This document shows positions 7,344-51,975 of a DNA stretch of 64,000 nt, piece by piece. How positions within the stretch are numbered: position 1 is the first letter of the stretch; every line of letters starts with the position of its first letter. Source of the stretch: an uncultured Ignavibacteria bacterium (GTDB taxonomy: Bacteria; Zixibacteria; MSB-5A5; WJJR01); assembly GCA_964440935.1 (NCBI GenBank), contig CAYTTY010000001.1, forward strand, positions 80,933 through 144,932, given 5' to 3'. The notes under the pieces are model-generated. The model was given only the letters and a program-made list of their open reading frames with translations, searched no databases and was not told the origin of the DNA. Both the position numbers and the translations under genes were made by a program.

Positions 7344-7358
7344 CGGCCGACGGACAAT

Positions 7359-12087: not shown

Positions 12088-12171
12088 GACCAATCACCTG
12101 CTGGACGGTCCACGTTGCGACCCTAGCACGACTCTACCGCTCCGCACATTATCATTGGAAGGATTAATGCC

Positions 12172-13275: not shown

Positions 13276-13285
13276 CGGATAGCGC

Positions 13286-14422: not shown

Positions 14423-14451
14423 ACCCGTCATTCAGCCGAAACCGTCACGCC

Positions 14452-15990: not shown

Positions 15991-16021
15991 GTGAATCCGA
16001 AGCAAGCAGTTCCCATCTCGA

Positions 16022-17203: not shown

Positions 17204-17237
17204 CAGGTGAGACGGATCGCTCACTTCATGTCTCCAC

Positions 17238-18251: not shown

Positions 18252-18388
18252 ATCGACTTGGATATTGATCGAAGCCGCCGATACTATCTCTAAGTGGCCG
18301 GAAGATGACAACTTAGCGGTACGAAGGCCGACGTCGTCTTGAATATCGTTGGATAGATTGCGTCGAACGCCTTATCATTCATCATGGA

Positions 18389-20737
18389 GTGGATGATGGG
18401 GGGACTGTTTTCCCGATGAATTGGATGAAGATGTACTTGGGTCGTTGGCGCTGGATCGTGTGGGATCTTTTTGCGATGCAGGGCGCCTTTGCCGTCGTCC
18501 TGTGGCTGCGGTTTGGCACCACGGGATCGGGGCAGCAGGTCCCAAGTACGCTGATCGATTATCTCGGTCCCGCGGCTTGGATATCCGCCGGGTGGCTGGT
18601 CATCTTCGCGGTTTTCGGTTTGTACCGCCAGCGTGCGTTTGCCTCGCATGCCGCGTGGCTGATGCGGCTGTTTAATGCGGTCACCTTCGGCACTCTATTG
18701 CTCGCCATTGTCACGTTCGACCCGACGCGTCCCTTCGCAGAGCCGCGCACGATCCTGATCGGTTATTGGGCGGCGATGTTGTTTTTCCTGGGTGGTGGCC
18801 GGTTGCTGCCTGCGCTCCAGGATAGCAGCAATCACGAGGAATCGATTGTCGTCACGCGAAGGCGTCTGGCGATCATTGCCATCGATGCCGTCCTGGTGGT
18901 GGCGTCGTACTACCTGGCATTCTGGCTGCGTTTTGATGGACACATTCCCGCCGATGCCCTGACCGCCTTTTGGAGTACGCTGCCGCTGGTGTTTCTCGTG
19001 CGCTTTGCCGCGTTCGTGATTTTCCGCCTGTATACCGGCGTCTGGCGGTACTCGTCGATCAATGACTTGTTTTCCATTTTGAAGGCCGTTTCTGCGGGCA
19101 CCGGCGTGCTCGTGCTGCCGGTGTTTTTCTTTGGCATTCCGGGATATCCACGGTCGGTCTTTCTGATCGACTGGTTCTTGCTGGTCATATTGCTCGGTGG
19201 TGTGCGTTTCGCGCTGCGCGCCTGGCGTGAGTTGCGACCGCGTTTCCGTCCCGATGGACGTCGCATTCTCGTCATCGGCGCCGGCGACGCCGGTGAGATG
19301 CTGATCCGCGAACTGAATCGGAATCCCGGGGCCTTTGGCGCACCGGTGGCCGTGATCGATTCCGATCCACGCAAACACGGTTCGCGTCTCCACGGTGTTC
19401 CTGTCATTGGTGGGCAGAATGCGATTCCCTCAGCCGTACGACGATTTCATGTCGACGAAATCCTGATCGCGATTCCATCGGCGACCGGGTCGCAAATGCG
19501 CGAAATCGTTGCCCAGTGCAGCCGCACCGGTGTGCCGTTTAAGACTGTTCCGTCGCTGCGCGAGTTGATCGGCAACCGCATCAGTTTGGCGCAGGCCCGA
19601 GCCGTCCACGTGGAAGACCTGCTCCGTCGTGCACCGGTCGAGATCGATTCGCCCACCTTGTCGCGGTTTCTCAGCGGCCGCCGTGTCATGGTGACCGGTG
19701 CGGCCGGGTCGATCGGCAGCGAGCTGGTGCGGCGCATTTTGCGTTACGCACCGGGCGAGCTCCTCCTGGTGGACCGTGCGGAGAACGCGCTGCACGACCT
19801 GATGGGTGAGTTGTCGTACATCGACAACTCCGGCTGCGTGCATGTTGCTCTGCTCGACATCACCGACCGCCGGCGGTTTCATCGTGAATTCGGCGACCGG
19901 GTTCCCGAGGTGATCTTTCATGCAGCCGCTTACAAACAGGTTCCGATCGCCGAGAATTACCCAGATGCCGTGGTGACCAACAACATCGGCGGTTCCCGGT
20001 TCTTGATGGATTGGTCACTCGAGCGTGGTGTGGCCGCATTTGTCAACGTGTCGACCGACAAAGCCGTGGTCCCGCGCAGTGTCATGGGCGCCACCAAGCG
20101 CGCTGCCGAATTGCTGGCACTCCGGCGCGCCGATGAAGGGCGGACCCGTTTCATCAACGTCCGATTCGGCAATGTCCTCGGATCCAGCGGGTCAGTCGTG
20201 CCTCTCTTCGAGCGTCAGATTCGTGCGGGCGGGCCGGTCACAGTAACACATCCCGACATCACGCGGTACTTCATGACGGCCACCGAGGCGGCGCTGCTCG
20301 TCTTGCAAGCGGGGGCGATCGGTGAAAACGGACAGACGCTGGTTCTGGATATGGGCGAACCGGTGCGCGTGGTCGACCTGGCGCGCGACATGATTGCATT
20401 GTCGGGATTGCGGCCGGACATCGACATTGCCGTCGAGTTTGTAGGATTGCGACCGGGCGAGAAGATGAACGAGGAGTTGTTCGGACCCAATGTGACACCA
20501 CGCCGTTCCACACACGAAAAGATCTGGATCGTCGACGCCGTCGATGATGCCGCGCCCGACTTTGAATCGCACATAACTGAGTTACTGCAATTGGCGGCAA
20601 CGGGCGATCATGAGGCCACCTTCCAGGCGCTCCTCGACGTGGTGCCGCACTTTGGACCCGAGGCGGATCAGCATCTCATTGACGACAACGACTCCATCGC
20701 CATAACACAGAACATGCAATTTCACAAGAATGGGTGA
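18389..20737 (+). CDS. membrane-anchored nucleotide-sugar 4,6-dehydratase (WbpM/PglF/CapD family)
   Basis: Four or five N-terminal transmembrane helices, then a CoA-binding-like linker and the SDR NAD-binding motif VTGAAGSIGSEL with the catalytic region. 782 aa; an alternative start lies at ATG 18416. Confidence 0.85.
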   Translation: MDDGGTVFPMNWMKMYLGRWRWIVWDLFAMQGAFAVVLWLRFGTTGSGQQVPSTLIDYLGPAAWISAGWLVIFAVFGLYRQRAFASHAAWLMRLFNAVTFGTLLLAIVTFDPTRPFAEPRTILIGYWAAMLFFLGGGRLLPALQDSSNHEESIVVTRRRLAIIAIDAVLVVASYYLAFWLRFDGHIPADALTAFWSTLPLVFLVRFAAFVIFRLYTGVWRYSSINDLFSILKAVSAGTGVLVLPVFFFGIPGYPRSVFLIDWFLLVILLGGVRFALRAWRELRPRFRPDGRRILVIGAGDAGEMLIRELNRNPGAFGAPVAVIDSDPRKHGSRLHGVPVIGGQNAIPSAVRRFHVDEILIAIPSATGSQMREIVAQCSRTGVPFKTVPSLRELIGNRISLAQARAVHVEDLLRRAPVEIDSPTLSRFLSGRRVMVTGAAGSIGSELVRRILRYAPGELLLVDRAENALHDLMGELSYIDNSGCVHVALLDITDRRRFHREFGDRVPEVIFHAAAYKQVPIAENYPDAVVTNNIGGSRFLMDWSLERGVAAFVNVSTDKAVVPRSVMGATKRAAELLALRRADEGRTRFINVRFGNVLGSSGSVVPLFERQIRAGGPVTVTHPDITRYFMTATEAALLVLQAGAIGENGQTLVLDMGEPVRVVDLARDMIALSGLRPDIDIAVEFVGLRPGEKMNEELFGPNVTPRRSTHEKIWIVDAVDDAAPDFESHITELLQLAATGDHEATFQALLDVVPHFGPEADQHLIDDNDSIAITQNMQFHKNG

Positions 20738-36679: not shown

Positions 36680-38353
36680 GTGAGGACTATGAAACAGACA
36701 GCAGACATCTCCGTCCGAATTCGAAATTGCACAACCATGATACTGGCGGTCTTCTGCGTTGTGGGGATAATGACACCTTCGTCAACCCAGGCGTTCAATG
36801 TCGATTCGTGTCATTGGGCGCAGTGGGATACGGTTATTGCTCTGTCACCGGAGCGGCCAGCCGCGCGATTTGGTGTTTATGCCTACCGCACTTTGGCGGT
36901 GGCCCACCCCGAGGTCTACCTGAAGTCGGATTCGTTGTTCGCCGACATCATCGAGCGAATTCCCGGCAGCCGCTCGACCTGGCGTGGCGCCAATCTGCGC
37001 AATGTCGAAATCTTCCGGCGCGTCCAGACAGGCGAGGCGCGCGGACCCTCCTTCTCGTTTCGGGATTGGGCTCCCACCTTGGACAGCATCGGGGATGCAG
37101 GTCGACTGAACGCGAGCACGTCATGGCTCGATCGACGTCTGCCGTCAGCGGCGGTCCTTTTGCACGGAACAGTGCATCGGCTGTCGACGGCCGAGGCGGC
37201 GATGTTGCGATATACGCAGTATCGTGCGGTCAAGGTACCAGCGGAAAGCCTGTATGTTGTCATTGATACCGCTGGTCGTGGATACCTTGCGAGGAATTCC
37301 GGAGTCGTATCGGTGGAAGCCGGGCACGCCGTCGACGATCCCAAGGCGATTACGCCCGCCCTCGTGTTCAATGAGCATGATGCGTATTATCCGCTTTTCG
37401 GCCGGGATGACCGTGAGAGGTCGCCATCGTTGAAGCGCATGGCCGCGCTCCTTGGCACCGGTCAGGCGCCGGCATTGACCGAGCCGGAGCTCAGACGTGT
37501 CGCCAAACTGCGGGACATCACGGCACTAGACTCTGAGCGGGAGAAGGCGTTGGCTGCCCTCGTAGCGCTGGGCGCCGTCGATGTGAGTCTCCAGCCGATT
37601 GCCGAGGCCTGGCGCCCGGTGACTTCCGATTCCACGTCACTGGCTACTTATGTGGATGGAATGGTGCGCACGACCGTGTACTGGGCCGATCGACTGAGTC
37701 CACACACGGCCGAGCTTGCTGCGCTGGTCACCGGTCCGGACATCGCCCAATTCGCGCCGACTCTCGAAGAGGCATATCTCGGGTTGTGTGGCCGTCCCGT
37801 TGATCCCACCGATTCGACCAACACCGTATACGAAGCCGGTGGGTTTCTCTGGTCGTTTGAGATGATGAATCTGATTCTCGACGATCTCATCCGTTTACGG
37901 ACCGGGCAACCCTCGTCGCAAGCGCTGGCCATGGCGGCGATTCTGGACTGCCGCGATATTGAAAACACACTCGTGGAATTCGCCAATATCGCCGACCGTC
38001 CCGCTCGCAATTGGGTGTTGGCCGCACAGGGACGTTGGCAATTCAATTTGGGGCAGTGGACACATGTCCCCGACAGTGTTTTGACGCGGCGTGCAATGCC
38101 GATCGGTCTCGAGTCGTATGTGGTTGATTCTCGCTATACTGCTATCGAAGCAACACGCGTGATTACCGGGGCAGACGACCTCACCATACTTGAGGAACTG
38201 TCAGATATTCTCACGGTGCTGCCGGCATTCTTCCTGCGTGTACCGTCACCGGAAGGCCGTCAACGCGACATAGACTACTTGATCTTCGATCTCACCAACG
38301 ACAAGATCGATATTGTGCGCTTGCCATGGCCGCAATTCGGTGATGATACCTAG
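36680..38353 (+). CDS. hypothetical secreted protein (no recognisable domain)
   Basis: Long ORF with coding-like GC3 bias. N-terminal hydrophobic signal-like segment (MILAVFCVVGIMTPSSTQA). Wedged between polA and coaE. Confidence 0.5.
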   Translation: MRTMKQTADISVRIRNCTTMILAVFCVVGIMTPSSTQAFNVDSCHWAQWDTVIALSPERPAARFGVYAYRTLAVAHPEVYLKSDSLFADIIERIPGSRSTWRGANLRNVEIFRRVQTGEARGPSFSFRDWAPTLDSIGDAGRLNASTSWLDRRLPSAAVLLHGTVHRLSTAEAAMLRYTQYRAVKVPAESLYVVIDTAGRGYLARNSGVVSVEAGHAVDDPKAITPALVFNEHDAYYPLFGRDDRERSPSLKRMAALLGTGQAPALTEPELRRVAKLRDITALDSEREKALAALVALGAVDVSLQPIAEAWRPVTSDSTSLATYVDGMVRTTVYWADRLSPHTAELAALVTGPDIAQFAPTLEEAYLGLCGRPVDPTDSTNTVYEAGGFLWSFEMMNLILDDLIRLRTGQPSSQALAMAAILDCRDIENTLVEFANIADRPARNWVLAAQGRWQFNLGQWTHVPDSVLTRRAMPIGLESYVVDSRYTAIEATRVITGADDLTILEELSDILTVLPAFFLRVPSPEGRQRDIDYLIFDLTNDKIDIVRLPWPQFGDDT

Positions 38354-40944: not shown

Positions 40945-40978
40945 GTTATCCATGGTACGTTCGTCCGCAGGAGGACAC

Positions 40979-42172
40979 ATGCTGACCACAGAAAAACCAT
41001 CGACGTTGCGTCTGGCGTCCCGCATGAGCAATCTCGGGACCGAGACTGCTTTTGAGGTATTAGCCAAGGCGCGCGAATTGGAAAGCAAGGGGCGCACCAT
41101 CGTCCATCTGGAAATTGGAGAGCCCGATTTCACCACCCCGCAGCACATCATCGAAGATGCGGTCAATCATCTTCGTGCCGGTGAAACTCACTACGGTCCC
41201 TCGGCGGGATTGCCCGACGTCCGCAAGGCGATTGCCCGCTATGTGTCGGAATCGCGCGGTGTCGATGTTTCGCCGGATCGCGTTGTGGTGACCCCCGGGG
41301 CCAAGCCGATCATGTTCTTTGCCATCCTGGCCCTCATCGAAAACGGCGACGAGGTGATCTACCCGAACCCGGGATTCCCGATCTACGAATCGGCAATTCG
41401 CTTCTTTGGAGGCACACCGGTTCCTATCCCGCTGCGCGAAGAGCACAATTTCCGCCTCGATATCGAAGAACTGATGGGGTTGGTCACGGATCGGACAAAG
41501 CTGATCGTCATTAACTCACCGCAAAACCCGACGGGCGGGATTCTTACCCGCTCGGATCTCGAAGCGATCGGACGCATGGCCGTCGAACGCGACATCTATG
41601 TGCTCTCCGACGAAATCTACAGCCAGATCGTGTATGAAGGTGAATTTCAGAGTATTCTGCACGCTGTGCCGGAGGCACTCGACCATGTCATCCTGCTCGA
41701 TGGTATGTCGAAGACATTCGCCATGACCGGTTGGCGATTGGGCTGGGGCGTGATGCGTCCTGATTTGGCGGCGGCGGTGGCCAAGCTGCAAACCAACAGC
41801 AACTCATGCACCTCAACGTTCTCCCAATTGGTCATTCCGGGCGCATTGTTTGGTCCGCAGGAAGCGGTCAGCGACATGCGACAGGAATTCAAACGGCGCC
41901 GCGATGCCATCGTCGACGGTCTCAATTCGATCGACGGCATCACCTGCAAGAAGCCGGCGGGTGCGTTCTATGTCTTTCCTAACATCAAGGAATTGGGAAT
42001 GACATCGAAGGAGACGGCCGATCGGATCCTCGAAGAGGCCAACGTTGCGGCCCTGGCCGGTACCTCGTTTGGCAAGAATGGGGAGGGCTATATGCGCTTC
42101 TCGTATGCCAATTCGATTGAGAATATTGAAAGCGGTGTTCAACAAATCAAAGACTGGGTTGCCAAACTCTGA
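40979..42172 (+). CDS. class I/II PLP-dependent aminotransferase (aspartate/aromatic aminotransferase family)
   Basis: ATG 40979 has an AGGAGGA Shine-Dalgarno; the track starts at 40952. Motifs EIGEPDF, NPxNPTG, SKTFAMTGWRLG (PLP lysine) and conserved Arg near the C-terminus. Confidence 0.85.
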   Translation: MLTTEKPSTLRLASRMSNLGTETAFEVLAKARELESKGRTIVHLEIGEPDFTTPQHIIEDAVNHLRAGETHYGPSAGLPDVRKAIARYVSESRGVDVSPDRVVVTPGAKPIMFFAILALIENGDEVIYPNPGFPIYESAIRFFGGTPVPIPLREEHNFRLDIEELMGLVTDRTKLIVINSPQNPTGGILTRSDLEAIGRMAVERDIYVLSDEIYSQIVYEGEFQSILHAVPEALDHVILLDGMSKTFAMTGWRLGWGVMRPDLAAAVAKLQTNSNSCTSTFSQLVIPGALFGPQEAVSDMRQEFKRRRDAIVDGLNSIDGITCKKPAGAFYVFPNIKELGMTSKETADRILEEANVAALAGTSFGKNGEGYMRFSYANSIENIESGVQQIKDWVAKL

Positions 42173-42199
42173 TCAATTCATTTCTTCAATAACCGTCTG

Positions 42200-42236
42200 G
42201 AGCCCCCGTCTGCATTATTATTGGCAGCGGGGGCTT
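42200..42236 (+). terminator. hairpin downstream of aminotransferase (possible terminator)
   Basis: AGCCCCCGTCTGC...GCAGCGGGGGCT stem-loop; weak U-tract. Confidence 0.4.
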
Positions 42237-42768
42237 CGTCATGACGATAGATAGATCTGCCGTTCTTCACTGATTTCGACAGACCCCACATCCCCGATCC
42301 GTTGAATAGCAACTCGTTGACTGGCAACGCGATGCGAGTCAGTGCGGTGCTGTCGTCGGGCTATTGTGCAGGTGTACAAACCCTTCAACGCGGCGGAGAG
42401 GGGAAGGATACATGTTAAAGAATCAGCCAATCTGTCGAAGACGTTGATAGGTGTTCTCTTTTGGAACACAGGGGTTAGTGTGTGAACAGATGTGGAGGGA
42501 GGCGGACGCCGTGGCACCCCGGATGCGTTGTACTGGACCGTTAGTTTCTGCTCCGAAATCACTTGGTGCCAAAAAAAGTGTGTCGAATTTCCTTGACGAA
42601 TTGCCTCCACGGTATCACCGTTCGACCAGCGGACTAGGTCCAGGGGGGACCTATGGGAAGCAACGAATGGATGCGTTGCGATGACCCGGGTAGTCAACCG
42701 CTTCATCACAGCCAGGAATTAAGACAACTCAATAGAGCAACGCTCACTCTTCAGTAAGGAGGGGACAC

Positions 42769-45750
42769 TTGCGTGCATGGATCAAACGCGGGTGGATAGC
42801 CTGCTTGTTGGTGGTCTGCATGGCGTTGGTGGCCAATGCAGCGACCACTGGCAAGATCACGGGTGTCGTCACCGACAAGGCAACCGGTGAACCGATTCCC
42901 GGCGCGGCTGTCACGATCGAGGGGACCGTGCTCGGTGCTCTCACAGACGATGAGGGTCGCTTCGTGATCCTCAATGTACCGGTCGGCACCCACAGACTGC
43001 GGGCGTCGATTGTCGGCTATCAGCCGATGGTGCTGACGAACGTTGGCGTGTCTGTCGACCTGACGACCTACGAAGACTTCGAACTCTCGGAGCGGGCCGT
43101 CGAAATGGAAGCGGTCACGGTCACGGTGGAACGGCCGATGATCATCCGAGACCAAACGTCCTCATTGCGCATCGTCGGCGAGGAGTTGATTCAGAACTCT
43201 CCAACACGTGGCTACGATGAAATCGTCCAGTTGCAGTCGGGCGTTGTGCGCTATTCGGACAACGCGGCCCGGGGCCGCGCGCGGGGTGACCGTGAGAACT
43301 CGGTCAACGGTACACTGCACATTCGTGGCGGCCGGGCCTCCGAGGTGGCTTACTACGTCGATGGATTCTCACAGCAGGATCCGCTGACCGGCATGTCGAC
43401 CGTGAACATCAACCAGAATGCCATCCAGGAAGTGCAGTTGACCACCGGTGGATTCAGTGCCGAGTATGGCAAGATCTCCTCCGGTGTGGTCAATGTGACG
43501 ACCAAGGGCGGTTATGGCACCTCGGGTTACAACGGCGGCTTTGAGGTGGCAACCGACAATCTCGAAGTTGACAAATCCTACGATTACAATTTGTACTCCG
43601 CGCACCTCTCTGGCCCGGTGCTGCCCGACAATGACCGGCTATCTTTCTTTGCCTCGGGCGAACGCCGCTGGCAGGGAGACCGTGCGCCGCGGGCCAACAT
43701 GGAAAACTCGTTCGCCGATCGGCACCGGATGCCGGTGAACTCGCTTTCTGGATGGTCGTATCAGGGGAAGCTCTACTACGACCTGACCAATGACATCCAA
43801 CTGAAGGCCGGCGTGCTCGGTTCGAGAGATGATTGGCGCGAATTCCGGATGGACTACTACTTCGCCCGCGATCATGTCCCGCGTTACGACGACGAGAACA
43901 ACTCGTTGTACGGACAGATTGTCCACAACATCTCACCGAAGACATTCTATACCGCCTCGGTCAATTACTTCCAGACCAAGCGCCTGCGCGGTGACGGTGT
44001 CCATTTCGACAATCTGCTCGAGTATTCGCGTCCCGATGGTCAGACGCGATTCGACGAGTCAACGTTGTTCTGGTTGGGTGATGATCCCGCGACGCCGGAC
44101 TCCTTTGAAGTACGGCCGGTCCACATCGGTGGTACCGACTCGGCGTACGTACGCATGCCGGTCGAAGCGACGGTGATCGATTCTTCCGGTGAAACGGTGG
44201 ATACCATCCGTTATGCCAACGAGGGTCACGTGTGGGATGACTTTCTGAAGCGGAACTCGTCCTATGTCGGATTTGACTTCGACCTGACCAGCCAGGTGCA
44301 CCCGAACCATGAAATCAAAACCGGTCTCGAGTTCCAACGCCACAACCTGAAGTTCTACCAGCATTACTTTCCGACGAACGCGTACTCGGGCCTCGACGGC
44401 GGTGGTTTCCGCGACGCCAACAATTACGGGTACGACAAGTTGGCCAACGAATCCGACACATTGTCAGAAGGCAATGAAGCCCGTACCCCGCTCGAATTCG
44501 CCGGATACATTCAAGACAAGTTCGAGTGGCAGGGGCTGGTGGTCAACGCCGGTATCCGTCTCGACGTGCTCGATGTGAACACGCGTCGCCTGGTGAACGA
44601 TGCGGTGCCGCTCAACGGTGACTCTACACGTGGTAATCCCGAGGTCCTCGATATCGACTCCGACATGGAGCCGGCCGAGGTTCAATACGATATCTCGCCC
44701 CGTCTGGGTATCGGGTTCCCGGTGTCGGATCAGTCGGTCTTCCATTTTTCGTATGGAAAGTTTTTCCAGCGTCCCGACTTGCAGAATCTGTATGTGGCTT
44801 GGGACTACATGGAATACAAGATCCGGGATGGCGGTTACTACGTAGCGTTTGGAAACCCGAACCTGGAGCCGTCCAAGACAACGGCCTATGAAATCGGTTT
44901 TACGACGCAAATCAACGACTACTCGAAGGTGTCCATTACAGCCTATTACAAGGATACCGAGGGCAACACCGAAGTGGTCAATCAGAACGCCGACAGTATC
45001 CTGTCAGAAGGGACCAAGAACTTTGCCACCTACCGCAATGCGGACTTTGCTACGGTTCGCGGTATCGATCTCAGTTACTCCATGCGCCGCATTCGCAACG
45101 TGCAGTTGGATTTGAACTACACACTGGCGTACGCGAAGGGGACCGGCTCTACGGCCAACACCCAGCGGAACGTGGCCTGGCAAAACAAGGAAGCGCCCAG
45201 CCAGTCGGCACCGCTCGCGTTCGACCAGCGGCATCAGTTCTCGGCGATATTGGACATCCGCTCCCGTGACAAGGAAGGCCCGAAACTAGGCGATTTCTAT
45301 CCATTGGAAAACGCCGGTGTCAACCTCGTGTTCAATGCGACTTCGGGAAGGCCATACACGAAGATGGACGTGTTCAATGAAATCACTCTCGGTGCCGTGA
45401 CATCGGTACCGGACGGTTCCATCAATAGCCGGTATGGGCCGTGGATCTATCGCCTCGATATGAAGGCCAATCGCGCCTTTAAGATTGGCCGCCTGAACTT
45501 CGACGCGTACGTGTGGGTGCTCAACCTCCTCGACCGCGACAATGCGCTCGACGTTTACGAAAGTACTGGATTGCCGAACACGACCGGATGGTTGTCGTCC
45601 CCCGATGGGCAGGAATTTCTGAGGACGCAAGGGGACGACGTCGACTACACCGGCGTGTCAAATAGCGAGAAGTATGAAATCAAACAGAACGACCCGAACA
45701 GCTACGACACACCGCGGCAGATTCGGTTCGGTTTGAGGACATTCTTCTAA
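42769..45750 (+). CDS. TonB-dependent outer-membrane receptor with N-terminal carboxypeptidase-regulatory-like (CarbopepD_reg) domain
   Basis: TTG start with an AAGGAGGGG Shine-Dalgarno 4 nt upstream. Signal peptide, then KITGVVTD...GEPIPGAAVTIEG (CarbopepD_reg fold), then plug and barrel. Ends in ...RFGLRTFF with the terminal aromatic typical of OM barrels. 993 aa. Confidence 0.85.
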   Translation: MRAWIKRGWIACLLVVCMALVANAATTGKITGVVTDKATGEPIPGAAVTIEGTVLGALTDDEGRFVILNVPVGTHRLRASIVGYQPMVLTNVGVSVDLTTYEDFELSERAVEMEAVTVTVERPMIIRDQTSSLRIVGEELIQNSPTRGYDEIVQLQSGVVRYSDNAARGRARGDRENSVNGTLHIRGGRASEVAYYVDGFSQQDPLTGMSTVNINQNAIQEVQLTTGGFSAEYGKISSGVVNVTTKGGYGTSGYNGGFEVATDNLEVDKSYDYNLYSAHLSGPVLPDNDRLSFFASGERRWQGDRAPRANMENSFADRHRMPVNSLSGWSYQGKLYYDLTNDIQLKAGVLGSRDDWREFRMDYYFARDHVPRYDDENNSLYGQIVHNISPKTFYTASVNYFQTKRLRGDGVHFDNLLEYSRPDGQTRFDESTLFWLGDDPATPDSFEVRPVHIGGTDSAYVRMPVEATVIDSSGETVDTIRYANEGHVWDDFLKRNSSYVGFDFDLTSQVHPNHEIKTGLEFQRHNLKFYQHYFPTNAYSGLDGGGFRDANNYGYDKLANESDTLSEGNEARTPLEFAGYIQDKFEWQGLVVNAGIRLDVLDVNTRRLVNDAVPLNGDSTRGNPEVLDIDSDMEPAEVQYDISPRLGIGFPVSDQSVFHFSYGKFFQRPDLQNLYVAWDYMEYKIRDGGYYVAFGNPNLEPSKTTAYEIGFTTQINDYSKVSITAYYKDTEGNTEVVNQNADSILSEGTKNFATYRNADFATVRGIDLSYSMRRIRNVQLDLNYTLAYAKGTGSTANTQRNVAWQNKEAPSQSAPLAFDQRHQFSAILDIRSRDKEGPKLGDFYPLENAGVNLVFNATSGRPYTKMDVFNEITLGAVTSVPDGSINSRYGPWIYRLDMKANRAFKIGRLNFDAYVWVLNLLDRDNALDVYESTGLPNTTGWLSSPDGQEFLRTQGDDVDYTGVSNSEKYEIKQNDPNSYDTPRQIRFGLRTFF

Positions 45751-45809
45751 AAGAGAGATGTCGGATGTTGGAGAATATCTCATACGATAGTGTCCATAGG
45801 AGGACGAGT

Positions 45810-48752
45810 ATGAAGCTCTTGAGGAAACTGATCGTTCCGACTGTTGTCCTCGCCTGGGCGTCCGTCGCGGTGGCGGCGGTGCCGATCGGGGGACCCTACG
45901 CGGGGGTTCAGCCGGCGGGGACACAGATCACGGATACACAAACATGGATCGATATCAACAACCTGTTGATGTTCGTCACCAACACCGGGTCGTTTGCCTA
46001 CGACCAGGGCGGTGTATTAGGCAAAAGCGACGGCCTTTACTTCCCGCGTGGCACCAACAAGACCGTCATTTTCGCAGGCGGTTTCTGGATGGGCGCCAAG
46101 GTGAACGATGAGATTCGTATCGCACTGGCCGAATATTCTGATGAGTTCGTTCCCGGTCCGTTTGGCGGCGACCCAACAGCCCAGAAAAACCGCGTCTACA
46201 AGATTCGTCAAGGCGACACGCCCGAATCGAATCCCGATTACGCCGACTGGCCATTCGAGGATGGTGCTCCGGCGTTGAAGGCCGCCGACGGCTCGGATTC
46301 GCTCGATGCCAGCGGCAATCCGATTCCCGGGCTAGTCGGCGACATGACCCTATGGTCGGTGTTTAATGACGGTGACCCGACGGCACATAGCAACAATGCC
46401 GGGGACACCGAGCCACTCAACGTCGAAGTGCACAATACGACCTTCGCCTTCGAACGCACGGGAGCGTTGGGCAACTGCATCTTTGTCCGCCTGAAGATCA
46501 TCAACAAGGGCGCCGACACGCTGAAGGACGCCTTTGTGAACACCTGGGCGGACCCTGATTTGGGTGATGCCGGTGACGACCTCGTGGGTTGCGACACCAC
46601 GCTCAGCCTGGGCTACTGCTACAACGCCGGCAGTGACCAGACCTATGGCGCGGCGCCGCCCGCAGTTGGTTACGACTTCTTCCAAGGTCCCATGATCGAG
46701 ACAGGCAACTTGGAAGATTCGGCGCTGGCCTACGGCCAGTGGTTCCACGGATTCAAGAACCTGCCGATGACATCGTTCAACAAATACATCAATGGTACAG
46801 ACCCCAGCAGCGCCGAGCAGTCCTACAACTACATGTCGGGTCTTCAGCGGGAGGGCCAGCCGCACACCAATCCGACTACTGGAGAGGTGACCACCTACGT
46901 GCATTCAGGCGATCCGGTCACCGGCATTGGCTGGCTTGATTCCAACCCGGCCGACCGTCGCTACTTCCTCTCATCCGGCCCATTCGACATGGCGCCGGGA
47001 GATTCGCAGGAAGTGGTGATCGGTATCGTGGTCGGACAGGGTGCCGACCGGCTCACGTCAATCACGGCGTTGAAGTTCAATGATCAGTTTGCACAGAGTG
47101 CATTCGACAAGAACTTCAACCTGCCACGCCCGCCGGTTGCACCGAAGATCACCGCGACCGAACTCGATCAGGCCGTTGTTCTCACGTGGACAGACACGTC
47201 GGAGGTCGACCCCGGTGACTACGCCTTTGAGGGGTACAATATCTATCAGGGGCTGACGAGTTCCGGACCCTGGCAGTGGCTGGCGACCTTTGATCTCGAA
47301 AACGAAATCACGGTCATCTTCGATCAGGACGTCGATTTGGATTTTGGTGTTGTCGTGGAGAAGCCGGTCCAGCGCGGTTCCGATTCGGGCATCAGACGCT
47401 ACATCCACCTTACGGATGACAAGTTCGAAGGACGGCCGCTACGCAACTACACCGACTATCATTTTGCGGTGACTGCTTACTCCTATAAAGAGGGAGAGGC
47501 ACCCAACAACCTTGAAAACCCATTCTCCGCGGCCCGTGTGAAGGTAACGCCGCAGCCGGAGGCACCGGGAGTGGACATTAGCGGTGTCCTTGCGGATACA
47601 ATTCCTGCCGAGCACACGGCCGGTGGTGGAGACGGCTCAGCATTCGCACTTGTGATCGATCCGTCGATCACAACGGGACACGATTACGCAGTCGGTTTTG
47701 ATGACGACGGCTCAGGTGGTTACACCTGGCGCGTCACCGATCTTGATGAGAACGACGACGTTGTTACGGGTCAAACCAACCAAAGCGGCGATGATGACTA
47801 TCCCATTTTCGATGGGCTCATGGTCAAAGTCCTCGGACCGCCGGTGGGCGTCAAGGGTGTCGATGAAGTGGCCAACGAGAGCGGCCCCATCGAACCGGAC
47901 AATGTTCATTTCAGTCTCAATTCAACTGGCGATTGGTACATCGATCCGGGTGGCGGCTTCGATCGCTACTCTTGGCAAGGTGGAACAACGCATGATTACG
48001 AGATTCGGTTCACGCCAGAGGCGACCGAATACTGCTGGGACTGGTTTGGACAGGGAGATTACGCGTTCGTCTTTGGAACACGTGTTCCCATTGAATTTTG
48101 GGATATCACAGACAACCGTCGAATCACCTTCATGTTGATCGACGACGATGAAAGTGGTGACTTTTCATGGGGCGACGGTCTGTACATTTGGGACATCAAC
48201 TACGATGACGTTGCCTGGGAGACTCCCGGGATTCACACGGGCGACTATGATCCGGATTACCACGATTTGCATTACGGTCGCTTCTGGTTTTACGACTACT
48301 CCCATGAGTTGACGCGGCCGGCACCGGGGACGATTGTGCGGGTGACGACGAATAAGATCAACACGGATGAGGACGTCTTCACGTTTACCGCCCCAGCGGT
48401 CGATACCGGCGGTCCGGCGGAGGTGGCCGACGATCTCTCGCAGATCAAAGTCGTGCCGAACCCGTATTACGCATTCTCGTCCTACGAGCCGGATCAGTTC
48501 GCACGTCAAGTCCGCTTCACCAACCTCCCGGAATCATGCACGATTCGCATTTTCAATCTGGGCGGTGACCTGGTACGGACACTCACAAAGGACGACCCGA
48601 CCACCTTCACGACGTGGAATCTTCAGACGGAAAACAACATCCTCGTTTCGTCGGGGCTGTATGTCTATGTCGTCACAGATAACATGTCGGGGGCCGATCA
48701 CGTGGGCAAGATGGCGGTCTTTGTTGAGATCGAACAATTGGATGTCTATTGA
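45810..48752 (+). CDS. large secreted protein with C-terminal T9SS-type sorting domain (Por_Secre_tail / FlgD-Ig-like); function unknown
   Basis: ATG 45810 preceded by GGAGGA. Signal peptide MKLLRKLIVPTVVLAWASVAVAA. The C-terminal ~90 aa (VVPNPYY...IRIFNLGGDLVRTL...SGLYVYVV...AVFV) matches the beta-sandwich CTD of T9SS cargo. An internal FN3-like segment is present. Confidence 0.6.
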   Translation: MKLLRKLIVPTVVLAWASVAVAAVPIGGPYAGVQPAGTQITDTQTWIDINNLLMFVTNTGSFAYDQGGVLGKSDGLYFPRGTNKTVIFAGGFWMGAKVNDEIRIALAEYSDEFVPGPFGGDPTAQKNRVYKIRQGDTPESNPDYADWPFEDGAPALKAADGSDSLDASGNPIPGLVGDMTLWSVFNDGDPTAHSNNAGDTEPLNVEVHNTTFAFERTGALGNCIFVRLKIINKGADTLKDAFVNTWADPDLGDAGDDLVGCDTTLSLGYCYNAGSDQTYGAAPPAVGYDFFQGPMIETGNLEDSALAYGQWFHGFKNLPMTSFNKYINGTDPSSAEQSYNYMSGLQREGQPHTNPTTGEVTTYVHSGDPVTGIGWLDSNPADRRYFLSSGPFDMAPGDSQEVVIGIVVGQGADRLTSITALKFNDQFAQSAFDKNFNLPRPPVAPKITATELDQAVVLTWTDTSEVDPGDYAFEGYNIYQGLTSSGPWQWLATFDLENEITVIFDQDVDLDFGVVVEKPVQRGSDSGIRRYIHLTDDKFEGRPLRNYTDYHFAVTAYSYKEGEAPNNLENPFSAARVKVTPQPEAPGVDISGVLADTIPAEHTAGGGDGSAFALVIDPSITTGHDYAVGFDDDGSGGYTWRVTDLDENDDVVTGQTNQSGDDDYPIFDGLMVKVLGPPVGVKGVDEVANESGPIEPDNVHFSLNSTGDWYIDPGGGFDRYSWQGGTTHDYEIRFTPEATEYCWDWFGQGDYAFVFGTRVPIEFWDITDNRRITFMLIDDDESGDFSWGDGLYIWDINYDDVAWETPGIHTGDYDPDYHDLHYGRFWFYDYSHELTRPAPGTIVRVTTNKINTDEDVFTFTAPAVDTGGPAEVADDLSQIKVVPNPYYAFSSYEPDQFARQVRFTNLPESCTIRIFNLGGDLVRTLTKDDPTTFTTWNLQTENNILVSSGLYVYVVTDNMSGADHVGKMAVFVEIEQLDVY

Positions 48753-48772
48753 GCGAGGGGAGAAACCGAACC

Positions 48773-49792
48773 ATGAAGAGACTCATAATCATCGTGGCGG
48801 CGATTGCCCTGGTGGTGAGTTGTGTGGACACCACGATCGCCGAAAACGCCCCACGCCTTGGATCGGCGGGCGCACATGAATTGCGTCTGCCTGTATCGGC
48901 CCGCATGATGGGCATGGCGGGTGCGTCGCTGGTGAACGCGAAAGGCACCGACGGGTTGTTCTGGAATCCTGCCGGGATTGCCATGTCGGAGCGCACCGAA
49001 CTGGAATTCTCGCACTTGACGTACATCGCGGATATCAATCAGAGTTACCTTGGTGCTGTCACGCATTTCGGCTCGATCGGATCATTTGGGCTGTCGGCGA
49101 AGTTCATTACGACGGGCGATATCGCCGTGACAACCGAAACCCAGCCCAATGGTACCGGCGAGATGTACTCACCGACGTTCTCGGTCATCGGTGCTCACTG
49201 GGCGCGCCGATTCACCGATCGTATCACCTTCGGGCTGTCGACGCATTACATCACCGAAAGCATCGATCGCGCGCGCGCGACAGGTGTCGCATTCGACTTG
49301 GGATTTGACTACGATCCGCAGTGGCGGGGACTGAAGTTTGCGATCGTGATGAAAAACTACGGCCCCGACATGCGGTTCGGTGGCGAGGGCTTCTCCGAAG
49401 ACGTGCGTGTTCCGGGGCAGGATCCCAACTCACCGGACAAAACCATTCGCCAGCAGTCGGCGGCGTTTGAATTGCCGTCACATGTGAAGCTTGGCTTGGC
49501 GTGGGAGGCATGGCAGCAGGATCGCAATAACATGATGCTCTACGGATCGTTCCAGAGCAACACGTTCAACAACGACGAAGGACACTTCGGCGGAGAGTAC
49601 TCGTACGACAACACGTTCTTCCTGCGCGCCGGATACACCTACTCCGATCAGGATGCGTACCTGTATGGTGTGACGTTCGGCGGCGGGCTTGTCCTCAAGT
49701 GGGGCGAGACCGACATGATGTTCGACTACGCCTGGACCGAAACCGACGTGTTCGACGCCAATCAGTATTTCACCGTCAAAGTGGCTTTCTGA
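48773..49792 (+). CDS. outer-membrane beta-barrel of the FadL/OmpP1/PorV superfamily (PorV/PorQ-like)
   Basis: Signal peptide. N-terminal hatch-like motif SARMMGMAGASLV...LFWNPAGIA (FadL family has SxRxxGxAGAG...NPA). Amphipathic beta-strand periodicity throughout; ends ...TVKVAF. Sits directly downstream of the CTD protein. Confidence 0.55.
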   Translation: MKRLIIIVAAIALVVSCVDTTIAENAPRLGSAGAHELRLPVSARMMGMAGASLVNAKGTDGLFWNPAGIAMSERTELEFSHLTYIADINQSYLGAVTHFGSIGSFGLSAKFITTGDIAVTTETQPNGTGEMYSPTFSVIGAHWARRFTDRITFGLSTHYITESIDRARATGVAFDLGFDYDPQWRGLKFAIVMKNYGPDMRFGGEGFSEDVRVPGQDPNSPDKTIRQQSAAFELPSHVKLGLAWEAWQQDRNNMMLYGSFQSNTFNNDEGHFGGEYSYDNTFFLRAGYTYSDQDAYLYGVTFGGGLVLKWGETDMMFDYAWTETDVFDANQYFTVKVAF

Positions 49793-49823
49793 TACGGATA
49801 TCAGAAAAGCGCACGGACGCTCA

Positions 49824-49859
49824 AAACACCCCCGCTCCGCAAGCGGGGGTGTTTTTTTG
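49824..49859 (+). terminator. Rho-independent terminator
   Basis: CACCCCCGC-TCCGCAA-GCGGGGGTG stem followed by T7 (TTTTTTT). Confidence 0.85.
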
Positions 49860-50043
49860 AGCAGGCGATCAGACGAGCGATTCGATCGTCGATGTGGCCC
49901 TGATGGCGCTTTGGGCCATCAGGGCCTGCGTACCTCACACTGGAATCGTATTCGGCCGTCATCCGCGATCAGTCATTGCGCACAGGACAAATGACGATAA
50001 CTTGGGTGGTACGATGTGGAGGCGTAGAACGTACAAAAGAGAC

Positions 50044-51975
50044 ATGACACGGCGTGGGGAATACAGGCTATCGGTATTCTGTGTGGTACTCGCACTCATG
50101 TTGGCTACGACTGTGGGTGCCCAGTCAGACCCACAGAGGCATGGTCCGATCTCGCCGCCCGCCATCGAAGTGGTGTATCCTAAGAAGGGGCAGCGGATCG
50201 GGCCGGTCGATTCCACGTTTGTGATCGGTTCAGTTACGCCGGGGGCATCTTTACGCATCAATGGCCATCTTATCGATGTCTACCGTACCGGTGGGTTTTT
50301 GGCCTGGCTGCCCGTCGAGAAGGGCAAGTTCACCTTCCGCCTGCGTGCGACCGATGGATTCCATTTCGATTCGCTCGACCTGCCGGTCACCATCGCCGAC
50401 CCGCGACCAATTCCGCCCGATAGCGGGCTGATCATCCGCAACGTGCGCCCGATGTGGAACCGGACGATTCGCGCCGGCGATGAAATCGAGATTCGGTTTG
50501 ATGGGACCGTCGGATGTGACGCCCGGTATTGGATTATCGGAGATGTCGATTCACTTGGGCCGTTTCCCATGGCTGAGCAGCATTATGAGCGCTATTCCGA
50601 TTTCCACACATATCGCAAGGACGCATTGCTCGAAGACGGTCCCCGGTACGATCAGGCGCCGTCCGGAGGCCGCTATACCGGTGTCTGGAGAGTCCCCGAT
50701 ATCGAGGGCGCCGATTCGCTGACGGTTCGAGTTGAGCTGACCGGGCTCTCTCAGAAATGGCTGGAGTCGCGACGGCGTCACTACAAGACACACTACGGGC
50801 CACCGATACCGATCGACACGACAGTCCGCACGATTCGTGAGACCGCAACCGGCAGATTGCGTCCAGTTGATGATCTCCCGCCGCGGGTGGTTGAATTCAC
50901 TGACAGTGTGCAGACGCTGCGCATGGGTCCAAGACTGGGGTACATCACGATCTTTCAGCCTTACGGTGTGCGCACCCGTTGGTGGGGAGAGGCGGGACCG
51001 TGGACCATCTTACAGTTGGCGCCGGGACACATCGCCTGGCTTGAAAAAGATAAGACGAGGCTCCTGCCGGAGGGCACGCCGGTTCCGGAAACATTTATTG
51101 CGCGGATGTCCACCAAAGTCAGCGGTGACGATGTGCAATTCCGCGTGGGAACGTCGGAGCGGATTCCATTCAAGATAACCGTCGATGACGATCTGCATCA
51201 TGTGCGCGTGATCCTGTTCGGCGCCACGTCGAACACCGACTGGATCGAGCACGATCCCGATGATGACCTGATCAAGAACATCACCTGGTCGCAAATGCAA
51301 CCCGGTGTGTATGTGATCAACTTACGCCTGGCGCAACAGGTGTGGGGTTACGATGCCCATTACGATAACAAACAGTTTGTGCTGGAATTCAAACGGCCAC
51401 CGTATGTCAGCGATGATCTCGAAGGACTCAAGGTCGCGGTCGATGCCGGGCATTCACGCGATCCCGGCGCCATTGGGCCGACCGGCCTGATGGAAAAGGA
51501 CGCGAATCTCAAGATCGCCTGGAAAGTACACGCCGAACTGAAAGAGCGCGGTGCTGATGTCGTCATGACGCGTCTCGGCGATGAACATGTCGCGCTCTAT
51601 GACCGCCCGTCGCTGTCGGTCGCCGAGGATGTCGACCTGTTCGTGTCGGTGCACAACAATGCCGTTCCCGACGGTATCAATCCGTACTACCGCAACGGCA
51701 CGTCAACGTACTACTACCACACGTTCTCACGCGATTTCGCGCGGCACATGCACCATCGTGTCCTCGATGCCACTGAACTCAACGATTACGGTCTCACCCA
51801 CGGCAACTTCGCCGTGATCCGTCCCACGCATTATCCCTCCGTCCTCGTTGAATGTGCGTTCATCATTCTCCCCGAACAGGAGGAGATGCTGTTGGACGAC
51901 GATTTCATTGAGCGCACGGCCAAGGGGATTGTGAAAGGTATTGAGGATTTCGTGGAGGCGCGGTTGAAGCGGTAA
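50044..51975 (+). CDS. multidomain N-acetylmuramoyl-L-alanine amidase (C-terminal Amidase_3/AmiC-type domain, ~450 aa N-terminal region of unknown function)
   Basis: Start chosen at ATG 50044 (MTRRGEYRLSVFCVVLALMLATTVGA signal peptide); the track ORF begins 49894. The C-terminal VAVDAGHSRDPGA...EHVAL...SVHNNA...ECAFI motifs are the Zn-binding residues of Amidase_3. Confidence 0.8.
   Translation: MTRRGEYRLSVFCVVLALMLATTVGAQSDPQRHGPISPPAIEVVYPKKGQRIGPVDSTFVIGSVTPGASLRINGHLIDVYRTGGFLAWLPVEKGKFTFRLRATDGFHFDSLDLPVTIADPRPIPPDSGLIIRNVRPMWNRTIRAGDEIEIRFDGTVGCDARYWIIGDVDSLGPFPMAEQHYERYSDFHTYRKDALLEDGPRYDQAPSGGRYTGVWRVPDIEGADSLTVRVELTGLSQKWLESRRRHYKTHYGPPIPIDTTVRTIRETATGRLRPVDDLPPRVVEFTDSVQTLRMGPRLGYITIFQPYGVRTRWWGEAGPWTILQLAPGHIAWLEKDKTRLLPEGTPVPETFIARMSTKVSGDDVQFRVGTSERIPFKITVDDDLHHVRVILFGATSNTDWIEHDPDDDLIKNITWSQMQPGVYVINLRLAQQVWGYDAHYDNKQFVLEFKRPPYVSDDLEGLKVAVDAGHSRDPGAIGPTGLMEKDANLKIAWKVHAELKERGADVVMTRLGDEHVALYDRPSLSVAEDVDLFVSVHNNAVPDGINPYYRNGTSTYYYHTFSRDFARHMHHRVLDATELNDYGLTHGNFAVIRPTHYPSVLVECAFIILPEQEEMLLDDDFIERTAKGIVKGIEDFVEARLKR

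Follow-up and report, generated by a model that had tools for sequence, protein, structure and literature searches.

Organization of the locus

The DNA analysed here (the window) is a stretch of 64,000 nucleotides of contig CAYTTY010000001.1 (GenBank assembly GCA_964440935.1) from an uncultured Ignavibacteria bacterium, which GTDB places in the Zixibacteria. Three consecutive open reading frames (ORFs) on the + strand of the window, referred to below as g1, g2 and g3, are located where the original prediction, which was made from the sequence alone, had put them (42769–49859). They encode a TonB-dependent receptor, a large secreted all-β protein and an outer-membrane β-barrel of the PorV/PorQ family (Table 1). 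We consider it almost certain that this triplet is one functional unit. The best overall explanation, to which we assign a probability of roughly 55%, is that the three products form a self-contained three-part outer-membrane module in which g3 would anchor g2 beside g1 for capture.

The genes were predicted to lie on one strand and to close with a strong terminator, in agreement with the ORFs, with their starts, which are led by Shine–Dalgarno sequences, and with a terminal hairpin that folds at −24.9 kcal/mol (z = −5.1; none of 200 shuffled sequences folds as well). The start codon of g1 is a TTG 6 nt past the Shine–Dalgarno sequence AAGGAGG (42757–42763). The longest ORF of g2 begins at 45765 and would encode 995 aa. 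Translation is instead likely to begin from the ATG at 45810, which is preceded by AGGAGG; the exact 980-aa product is present in public gene calls and the 995-aa version is not. Similarly, the longest ORF of g3 begins at a TTG (48749), but the likely start is the ATG at 48773, preceded by GAGGGGAG; this choice is backed by the start of the syntenic orthologue and by the presence of the exact 339-aa product in public records. The overlap of the barrel gene with the 3′ end of the cargo gene, as originally described, is therefore an artefact of choosing the longest ORF, and the likely gap between g2 and g3 is 20 nt, with 59 nt between g1 and g2.

Table 1. Features of the g1–g2–g3 operon in window coordinates
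Feature	Position	Strand	Basis
Upstream leader/promoter region	42433–42768	+	Part of a non-coding gap of ~600 nt that follows the aminotransferase gene with its hairpin
g1, TonB-dependent receptor, 993 aa	42769–45750	+	Pfam CarbopepD_reg_2, Plug and TonB_dep_Rec_b-barrel above cut-offs
g2, secreted multidomain all-β protein, 980 aa	45810–48752	+	Shine–Dalgarno sequence and ATG; no curated family
g2 signal peptide, type I (MKLLRKLIVPTVVLAWASVAVA/A)	45810–45878	+	Read from the sequence; modelled N-terminal helix, residues 2–22
g2 N-terminal domain (residues 45–437), large β-supersandwich with a long helix at the end	45942–47120	+	AlphaFold2 model, Foldseek
g2 middle β-sandwich (FN3/Ig-like) domains (residues ~445–685)	47142–47864	+	Strand pattern of the AlphaFold2 model, Foldseek matches to FN3 arrays
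g2 variable cassette domain (residues 686–847, 162 aa)	47865–48350	+	No similarity to the segment of the orthologue
g2 C-terminal seven-stranded β-sandwich, T9SS CTD-like (residues 879–970)	48444–48719	+	AlphaFold2 model, Foldseek, profile
g2 conserved C-terminal tail past strand 7 (FVEIEQLDVY-COOH)	48720–48749	+	Family logo
g3, PorV/PorQ-family outer-membrane β-barrel with signal peptide, 339 aa	48773–49792	+	NF033709, 157.2 bits
Intrinsic terminator ending the operon	49823–49858	+	Hairpin 49823–49855 with a 14-bp stem, then U7

Conservation of the triad and exchange of C-terminal modules

When one genome per GTDB species was scanned, a relative of g2 was encoded in at least 579 of these genomes, and the 79 best loci were examined. 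These loci come from Zixibacteria, Ignavibacteria (including the cultured Melioribacter sp. Ez-97), Eisenbacteria, Latescibacteria, Marinimicrobia, KSB1, GN15 and metagenome-assembled genomes (MAGs) labelled Bacteroidota, and many of them bear imprecise MAG labels only. All 68 loci with sequence on both sides have the genes in the order g1–g2–g3 on one strand, as located by tblastn with the window proteins and ORF delimitation, with intergenic gaps of mostly 0–50 nt. Independent gene calls give the same triad in four loci that were fetched apart from the scan (L001, L081, L090 and L091). Since the triad is kept in all of these loci, chance adjacency is excluded, and co-occurrence of the triplet in related genomes, which had been proposed as a check, extends across several phyla of the Fibrobacterota–Chlorobiota–Bacteroidota (FCB) group. 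One Zixibacteriota MAG contains two complete triads, the copies of which are 50%, 44% and 51% identical for g1, g2 and g3, respectively; every cargo therefore has its own receptor and barrel.

Some relatives of g2 end differently. Those at L010 (5872–8727), L069 (5881–8838), L082 (8001–10838) and L083 (8001–10844) end in a type I dockerin (33.6 bits with Pfam in P0029), and those at L078, L084, L085/86 and L089 end in a canonical type IX secretion system (T9SS) C-terminal domain (CTD) of type A, with the pattern …NPF…GVYFY…KKMxLLK and a Por_Secre_tail or FlgD_ig assignment. No g1 or g3 homologue lies beside either kind in the sequence available, which comprises several kilobases on at least one side and both flanks for L010, L069, L078, L082 and L084. 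All operon-linked g2 proteins end in a CTD-like sandwich followed by a conserved tail, and this tail is absent from the canonical-CTD and dockerin relatives. It is at the C-terminus that the few partnerless relatives differ, and one passenger thus uses three alternative C-terminal modules, of which the tail-bearing module alone accompanies a receptor and a barrel. The counts of the C-terminal types are not phylogenetically independent, and the pattern spans several phyla. We regard this swap pattern as the strongest evidence that the C-terminus of g2 and g3 (and g1) cooperate. It strengthens the earlier suggestion of a barrel dedicated to one cargo, the proposed PorV-type shuttle being refined here to a PorQ-like cognate carrier and anchor for a CTD that is retained; that g3 is the cognate carrier or anchor of g2 appears quite probable from these analyses.

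The dockerin-ended paralogues, from Ignavibacteria and Zixibacteria MAGs, stand alone, and a dockerin on a secreted protein of Gram-negative lineages implies a cohesin-bearing anchor. Extra or tandem g2-like genes were also observed in KSB1 and unclassified MAGs (L043 60–4389; L044 and L049 11992–14971), as exemplified by a second copy that follows g3 and has no receptor of its own.

C-terminal domain and tail of g2

The AlphaFold2 (AF2) model of g2, built on 78 sequences, is nearly all β, with a predicted local distance difference test score (pLDDT) of 88.9 and a predicted template-modelling score (pTM) of 0.75. Seven strands lie between residues 880 and 970, as in the Ig-like sandwich of T9SS type A CTDs. 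The domain carries the motifs VPNPYY, CTIRIFNLGGDLVRTL and SSGLYVYVV, together with a conserved lysine in GK967MAVF. A near-invariant lysine close to the C-terminus is a trait of type A CTDs (PMC10994853). In the g2 family, Gly966-Lys967 is kept in at least 90% of the 78 sequences, and position −14 is Lys or Arg in 182 of 184 tails; the Gly-Lys pair of the last strand is the counterpart of the conserved type A lysine.

Compared with all PDB sequences, the family profile for the C-terminus of g2 found the PorU CTD (E = 0.032) and the PorZ CTD (E = 0.24) and nothing else. A Foldseek search with the g2 model placed PorZ first (5m11; 4.7e-7) and also returned PorU (6za2; 5.5e-5) and a phage protein that bears the annotation ‘secretion system C-terminal sorting domain’. 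The only NCBIfam matches of g2 are two weak ones at its C-terminus, to the C-terminal part of the PorZ model NF052228 (22.8 bits) and to the sorting-domain model TIGR04183 (see below). Some relatives of g2 weakly match FlgD_ig (PF13860), and the type B CTD models PF13585 and TIGR04131 gave no match in g2 at E ≤ 0.1. A search with the 120-aa CTD alone recovered only fragments of at most 208 aa and was uninformative about architecture.

The tail that follows the sandwich conforms to the logo GK[ML]A[VI]F-x-E-x-E-x-L-x-x-[FY]-COOH; lineage-specific forms include FQPEERLDVY and FIDRERLQQF. In 184 relatives, Glu at −8, Glu/Gln at −6, Leu at −4 and Phe/Tyr at −1 are near-invariant, and the rest of the operon-linked set has looser variants. 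Residues 975–980 of g2 are modelled with low confidence in the AF2 monomer.

The g3 barrel

The PorV/PorQ family model NF033709 is matched by g3 at 157.2 bits (cut-off 90) over positions 4–326 of its 326 positions. Of the equivalog models, PorQ (NF033711) comes closest with 83 bits (cut-off 220), followed by PorV (NF033710) with 45.7 bits (cut-off 250), so that both scores are below their cut-offs. NF033709 is likewise matched by all 32 operon-linked g3 homologues (E ≤ 0.001), and the PorP family model by three of these relatives, weakly. The g3 family profile finds F. johnsoniae PorV (6h3i_F) with E = 9.4e-22, and a 90%-identity cluster mate of g3 carries the NCBI name ‘PorV/PorQ family protein’.

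The third gene had been described as a barrel of the FadL/PorV superfamily, and its PorV side is clearly favoured. A FadL/TodX-type channel for hydrophobic compounds beside the TonB-dependent receptor, with g2 as an unrelated secreted enzyme, would be in line with the weak match of g3 to the Pfam FadL/Toluene_X model PF03349 (24.1 bits, residues 49–164 only) and with weak profile matches to TodX (E about 1e-5). However, the Toluene_X score is below its cut-off (29.7), the PorV profile match is better than that to TodX by 16 orders of magnitude, g2 has no catalytic-domain match, and the strict coupling between the C-terminal type of g2 and the presence of g3 would be left unexplained. Uptake of this kind is thus very improbable, and g3 groups with PorV/PorQ and not with genuine FadL channels.

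The g1 receptor

The receptor consists of a signal peptide (MRAW…LVANA/A), a CarboxypepD_reg domain (residues 30–118), a TonB-box-like segment (AVTVTV-ERP, residues ~114–123), a Plug domain (residues 127–239) and a β-barrel that extends to a C-terminal Phe. Pfam scores are 69.3 bits for CarbopepD_reg_2 (cut-off 32.2), 34.1 bits for Plug (PF07715; cut-off 23.9) and 80.7 bits for TonB_dep_Rec_b-barrel (PF00593; cut-off 27). Across an alignment of 66 operon-linked g1 homologues, the TonB-box-like pattern V-x-V-x-A-ERPL and the plug motifs IRGGR, YYVDG and AEYG are kept, and g1 therefore looks, from its sequence features, like a functioning TonB-dependent transporter. No close relative of g1 was found among solved structures.

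The SusC/RagA model TIGR04056 scores only 61.6 bits against g1 (cut-off 368.25), in an alignment limited to the N-terminal ~220 residues, which indicates that g1 is not SusC/RagA. In Pfam and NCBIfam scans, SusD-type families were matched neither by g2 nor by any neighbour tested, as expected from the description of a CarbopepD-type receptor lacking a SusD partner. The fold of g2, which is all-β, is also different from the α-helical TPR-like fold of SusD, so that the locus is distinct from canonical SusC/SusD polysaccharide-utilization loci (PULs), as had been proposed.

Passenger domains and variable cassette of g2

As predicted, g2 is a secreted protein of about 980 aa (roughly 100 kDa), with a signal peptide for Sec export and no Pfam match at E ≤ 0.1. 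It has more than 2,208 full-length relatives, the closest from Zixibacteria MAGs; all those bearing a source name are labelled hypothetical, and g2 itself is annotated publicly as a ‘hypothetical protein’.

The N-terminal domain (~390 residues) is the best-conserved region of the protein and contains the acidic motif DPDLG..DDLVGCD. Modelled alone, it reaches a pLDDT of 96.6 and a pTM of 0.94. Foldseek relates it to the non-catalytic N-terminal supersandwich of the glycoside hydrolase (GH) family 15 glucodextranase 1ug9 (query-normalized template-modelling (TM) score TMq 0.41, r.m.s.d. 5.8) and to the supersandwiches of dextran dextrinase, GH94 and GH116 (E values down to 2e-7, TM scores 0.36–0.44). 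The catalytic (α/α)6 domain of GH15, GH94 and GH116 has no equivalent in g2, which is almost entirely β and contains no helical barrel. We rejected the possibility that g2 is an enzyme, as neither hidden Markov model searches nor fold searches give a catalytic-domain match.

A search of a library of 1.84 billion proteins with the N-terminal domain alone recovered 6,358 clusters (at 50% identity) at E ≤ 1e-3 and 1,890 at E ≤ 1e-30, and no Pfam or NCBIfam model covers this domain. Some of its relatives carry the sorting-domain family PF18962 at or near the cut-off of 27 (P0129, 35.6 bits; P0121, 25.3 bits), and the domain is therefore an extracellular T9SS passenger elsewhere. Two copies of the domain are present in some relatives (P0121, P0122, P0129 and P0161), and in P0129 (1,788 aa) the domain occurs together with BNR/YCF48-like repeats and a Por_Secre_tail that scores above the cut-off. 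From these several architectures, the N-terminal domain is a mobile extracellular module.

The closest orthologue of g2 (P0001, at the Zixibacteria locus L081) has the same neighbourhood, from polA through the ABC transporter. The two proteins are 86% identical over residues 1–685 and 84% identical over residues 848–980, and the intervening residues 686–847 have no detectable similarity to the 225 residues found there in the orthologue (L081 12056–12730). At the DNA level, homology to L081 ends at 47719 and restarts at 48372. The syntenic orthologues of g1 and g3 are 87% and 90% identical, respectively, so that the cassette appears to have been exchanged, or to be diverging very fast, with no matching change in either partner.

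In 220 relatives the cassette ranges from 136 to 365 aa. Single-linkage clustering gave one component, which community detection resolved into at least four types, with the cassettes of the window and of its nearest orthologue in separate communities. Because all cassettes merge by single linkage, the types are divergent relatives and not unrelated folds. At least one community, type 4 with loci of Zixibacteria and Latescibacteria, crosses a phylum boundary, and the types do not track phylogeny.

Proposed mechanism

In the mechanism that we favour, g2 would pass the outer membrane through the T9SS translocon using its type A-like CTD, and g3 would dock at the lateral gate of SprA instead of PorV and receive this CTD. 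By keeping the uncleaved CTD and tail bound, g3 would hold g2 on the cell surface, beside or over g1, where g2 would capture a substrate that g1 imports with energy from TonB. In this arrangement, g2 would take the functional place of SusD or TbpB without being lipidated. The glycosidase-type supersandwich fold of the N-terminal domain provides a weak hint of a carbohydrate ligand, so that a glycan or some other polymer may be the substrate, and the exchangeable domain (residues 686–847) may either tune binding or diversify the exposed surface. The parts of this mechanism differ in strength. Export of g2 via the T9SS translocon seems probable. Since g1 is always co-encoded and its transport motifs are kept, anchored g2 most likely captures substrate for g1; for the module as a whole, we judge the odds of a function in substrate capture for import to be even.

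Precedents exist for the individual steps. PorU and PorZ retain their CTDs, which are bound to PorV and PorQ, respectively (PMC10202324), and type B cargo is carried away from the translocon by cognate PorP/SprF proteins, whose genes are adjacent to its own and which anchor it on the surface (PMC10202324, PMC10994853, PMC12618676). Among the FCB phyla sampled (a sample with Ignavibacterium album and without Zixibacteria), SprA is reported to be absent only from Chlorobiota, and to be present in the Ignavibacteriota representative (PMC12611786; PMC11285876).

Several observations weigh against this mechanism. The CTD-like domain scores 17.3 bits with TIGR04183 (cut-off 23) and has no match to PF18962 at E ≤ 0.1, and it does not lie at the extreme C-terminus: a 10-residue tail follows strand 7, whereas canonical relatives end in KKMVLLK. 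The original assignment of a T9SS-type sorting domain to the end of g2 is therefore upheld by the seven-stranded fold, the conserved lysine and the matches to PorZ and PorU, and is reduced to ‘CTD-like’ by the subthreshold scores and the extra tail. None of the refuting conditions set with the original prediction was borne out, and its reading of the module is supported in part. No T9SS core gene (SprA, PorKLMN or PorU) is evident among the window ORFs scanned, the genome itself not having been searched for them, and no scanned ORF of the window apart from g2 has a CTD-like end. The fold match of the N-terminal domain is moderate in the models (TM about 0.4) and points towards non-catalytic domains. 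As neither g1 nor g3 changed in step when the cassette was swapped between orthologues, this domain is not the obvious candidate for contact with the receptor. Finally, the 112 genes flanking the triads (59 downstream and 53 upstream, assigned with Pfam) include no glycosidases, nutrient peptidases, sigma/anti-sigma pairs or hybrid sensors, unlike those of classic PULs, and an Rfam search of window positions 42100–42850 (E ≤ 1) returned no family, and thus no riboswitch or regulatory RNA upstream of g1. With neither PUL-like neighbours nor an upstream riboswitch, nothing indicates a substrate.

The C-terminal observations would also fit display without the T9SS. Here g3, by itself or together with g1, would bring g2 to the surface and anchor it in the manner of the Slam barrels, through which Proteobacteria export TbpB-type proteins that partner TonB-dependent receptors, the CTD-like domain and tail then being a barrel-docking module. 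The failure with TIGR04183 and PF18962, a conserved tail with a terminal aromatic residue that is foreign to canonical T9SS cargo, the strict coupling of this tail type to g3 and the fact that we found no paper demonstrating T9SS core genes in Zixibacteria are all consistent with such a route. Nevertheless, the fold, the conserved lysine and the nearest relatives (PorZ and PorU) of the g2 C-terminus point to T9SS CTDs, and canonical T9SS CTDs are used by sister proteins that share the passenger domains of g2. In addition, g3 matches no Slam-type family in Pfam and NCBIfam scans, and PorV-family barrels are small, with 14 strands, and act as carriers beside the 36-stranded SprA pore, not as pores for folded proteins of ~100 kDa (PMC10994853). 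We therefore consider this route unlikely.

The triad could instead be a structural, biogenesis or surface-coat complex of the envelope, with g1 as the platform, g3 as the pillar (the role of BamG, which holds BamH on BamA in Bacteroidota) and g2 as a protective or adhesive layer whose cassette diversifies under pressure from phages or predators. The flanking genes are diverse housekeeping genes that vary between loci; among them are several cell-envelope enzymes (Amidase_3 here; NlpC/P60, S66, S13 and SurA-like peptidyl-prolyl isomerases elsewhere), and catabolic and regulatory genes are not among them. This context, the broad conservation of the triad and a hypervariable cassette, which suits an exposed surface, would all be expected of a coat, and a FadL-family barrel that serves as an anchor on another barrel has a precedent (PMC12611786). 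The family-wide TonB-box-like segment and plug motifs of g1 argue instead for active transport, and several paralogous triads per genome resemble nutrient systems. Furthermore, the BamG model NF053685 is not matched by g3 (E ≤ 0.1) and is matched weakly by four of its 32 relatives. A structural role of this kind is, in our view, rather improbable, and we retain capture by anchored g2 for import through g1 as the preferred interpretation.

Comparison with known systems

A close parallel is provided by the PorZ–PorQ and PorU–PorV pairs of the T9SS attachment complex of P. gingivalis, in which a large β-rich surface protein with an uncleaved seven-stranded CTD is held by a PorV-family 14-stranded barrel (PMC10202324); for g2, we infer that the CTD is similarly retained. 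In the PDB, the g2 C-terminus has no relatives besides PorZ and PorU, and PorQ is the closest equivalog of g3. However, g2 has neither the β-propellers of PorZ nor the peptidase domain of PorU and has an additional conserved tail after the CTD, and g3 scores far below both equivalog cut-offs. The cargo and barrel genes of the triad are, moreover, adjacent, multi-copy and coupled to a TonB-dependent receptor, and they occur mainly outside the studied Bacteroidota such as Porphyromonas and Flavobacterium.

Clustering of a barrel gene with its cargo gene is also seen for type B cargo with PorP/SprF, such as SprB–SprF of Flavobacterium johnsoniae, where the barrel is an alternative carrier and a surface anchor (PMC10202324, PMC12618676, PMC10994853). 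In contrast, the CTD of g2 is type A-like, g3 is PorV/PorQ-like, and type B systems include no TonB-dependent receptor. SusC/SusD (RagA/RagB) of Bacteroidota PULs resemble the triad in having a CarboxypepD_reg-type receptor gene just 5′ of that for a surface-exposed partner and in having paralogous copies per genome; they differ in that g2 has no SusD fold or family and, instead of being a lipoprotein, has a CTD and a barrel of its own, and in that the triad locus lacks enzymes and regulators. In BamA–BamG–BamH of F. johnsoniae, a FadL-family barrel attached to a larger barrel forms the pillar on which an extracellular protein is held (PMC12611786), but the partners are different, the function is biogenesis of outer-membrane proteins, BamH is a lipoprotein and g3 has no match to BamG.

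The principle of a cognate PorV-like carrier is thus already known. In the literature searched, there is no description of the triad itself, with its tail-bearing type A-like CTD class, PorQ-like partners, obligate pairing with a TonB-dependent receptor, passenger family and swappable cassette. The TbpA–TbpB–Slam and Slam-dependent hemophore systems of Proteobacteria follow the same gene logic, combining a TonB-dependent receptor, a surface capture protein and a dedicated 14-stranded barrel for display; the families are unrelated, and Slam substrates are lipoproteins, whereas display in the triad is probably via T9SS. IhtA–IhtB of P. gingivalis, a TonB-linked receptor and an adjacent CTD-family surface protein thought to serve it, also resembles the triad, but IhtB has a canonical cleaved CTD, is attached to anionic lipopolysaccharide (A-LPS) and has no dedicated barrel.

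Known T9SS biology comprises two CTD classes and their carriers, nearly all from a few Bacteroidota, and the lineages that bear the module described here are abundant in sediments, aquifers and oceans. Tentatively, and with less confidence than in the mechanism above, we suggest that tail-bearing CTDs with g3-type barrels may represent a third class of T9SS signal and carrier, not recognised before, in addition to the type A–PorV and type B–PorP/SprF classes. It would be hard-wired to a TonB-dependent receptor, would contain an exchangeable cassette, and would perform in Zixibacteria, Ignavibacteria, Eisenbacteria, Latescibacteria and Marinimicrobia the capture role held by SusD lipoproteins in Bacteroidia. 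If so, T9SS-delivered, barrel-anchored proteins would be integral to TonB-dependent import over much of the FCB superphylum.

The comparative swap pattern ties a very large passenger family without a model to a PorQ-like barrel and a TonB-dependent receptor. If the proposed mechanism is correct, the cognate-carrier principle would extend to a type A-like CTD, a mechanistic link between T9SS and TonB-dependent uptake would be established, and it would become apparent how many MAG-only lineages may supply their receptors with surface capture proteins without SusD. The model is open to direct testing, as the operon is present in the cultured Melioribacter.

Leader, flanking genes and other features of the window

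An unusually long non-coding leader of ~600 nt (42173–42768) precedes g1. Its last ~335 nt can be aligned to L081, in an alignment that runs unbroken from 42433 through g1 and the 5′ two-thirds of g2 to 47719 with 78% identity. The leader contains a single weak sigma-70-like site, on the opposite strand. A minus-strand ORF within it (42239–42709, 156 aa) was taken as spurious, as it has no family match and is uncalled in the orthologous locus.

The operon of the window is flanked by housekeeping genes: upstream by polA, a DsbD-like gene, coaE, a split transketolase and an aminotransferase (40952–42172, with its own terminal hairpin), and downstream by a gene for a 693-aa Amidase_3 protein (49894–51975) and then by a sugar ABC transporter. 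The Amidase_3 domain is confined to residues 514–684 of this protein, and the N-terminal part of ~500 residues has no assignment. Between polA and coaE, a 557-aa ORF (36680–38353) has no NCBIfam match; L081 has an equally long gene in the corresponding place (895–2568), which has no Pfam match, and the ORF appears to encode a conserved protein.

The sole recurrent neighbour family of the triads is a GWxTD-domain protein (PF20094, ~455 aa), encoded on the same strand right after the triad in 11 of 59 loci, which are of Ignavibacteria type (for example L038 10461–11819, L052 10609–11982 and L068 10302–11672); it may be a fourth, lineage-specific component. The NlpC/P60 enzymes mentioned above lie downstream of the triad at four loci, and the S66, S13 and SurA-like proteins are likewise encoded after it at other loci. 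In one Zixibacteriota MAG (L090 469–3988), a Tol-Pal/TonB-ExbBD-type cluster (MotA_ExbB, ExbD, TonB_C, TolB and OmpA-like) lies ~3 kb from the triad, which may be a coincidence.

Elsewhere in the window, a polysaccharide biosynthesis and export cluster occupies positions 4788–20737. Among its products are an 851-aa protein in which a sugar-1-phosphate nucleotidyltransferase is fused to a phosphohexomutase (4788–7343), a Wza/EpsE-like exporter (7359–8996) and a 782-aa protein that joins a polyprenyl glycosylphosphotransferase to a PseB-like 4,6-dehydratase (18389–20737).

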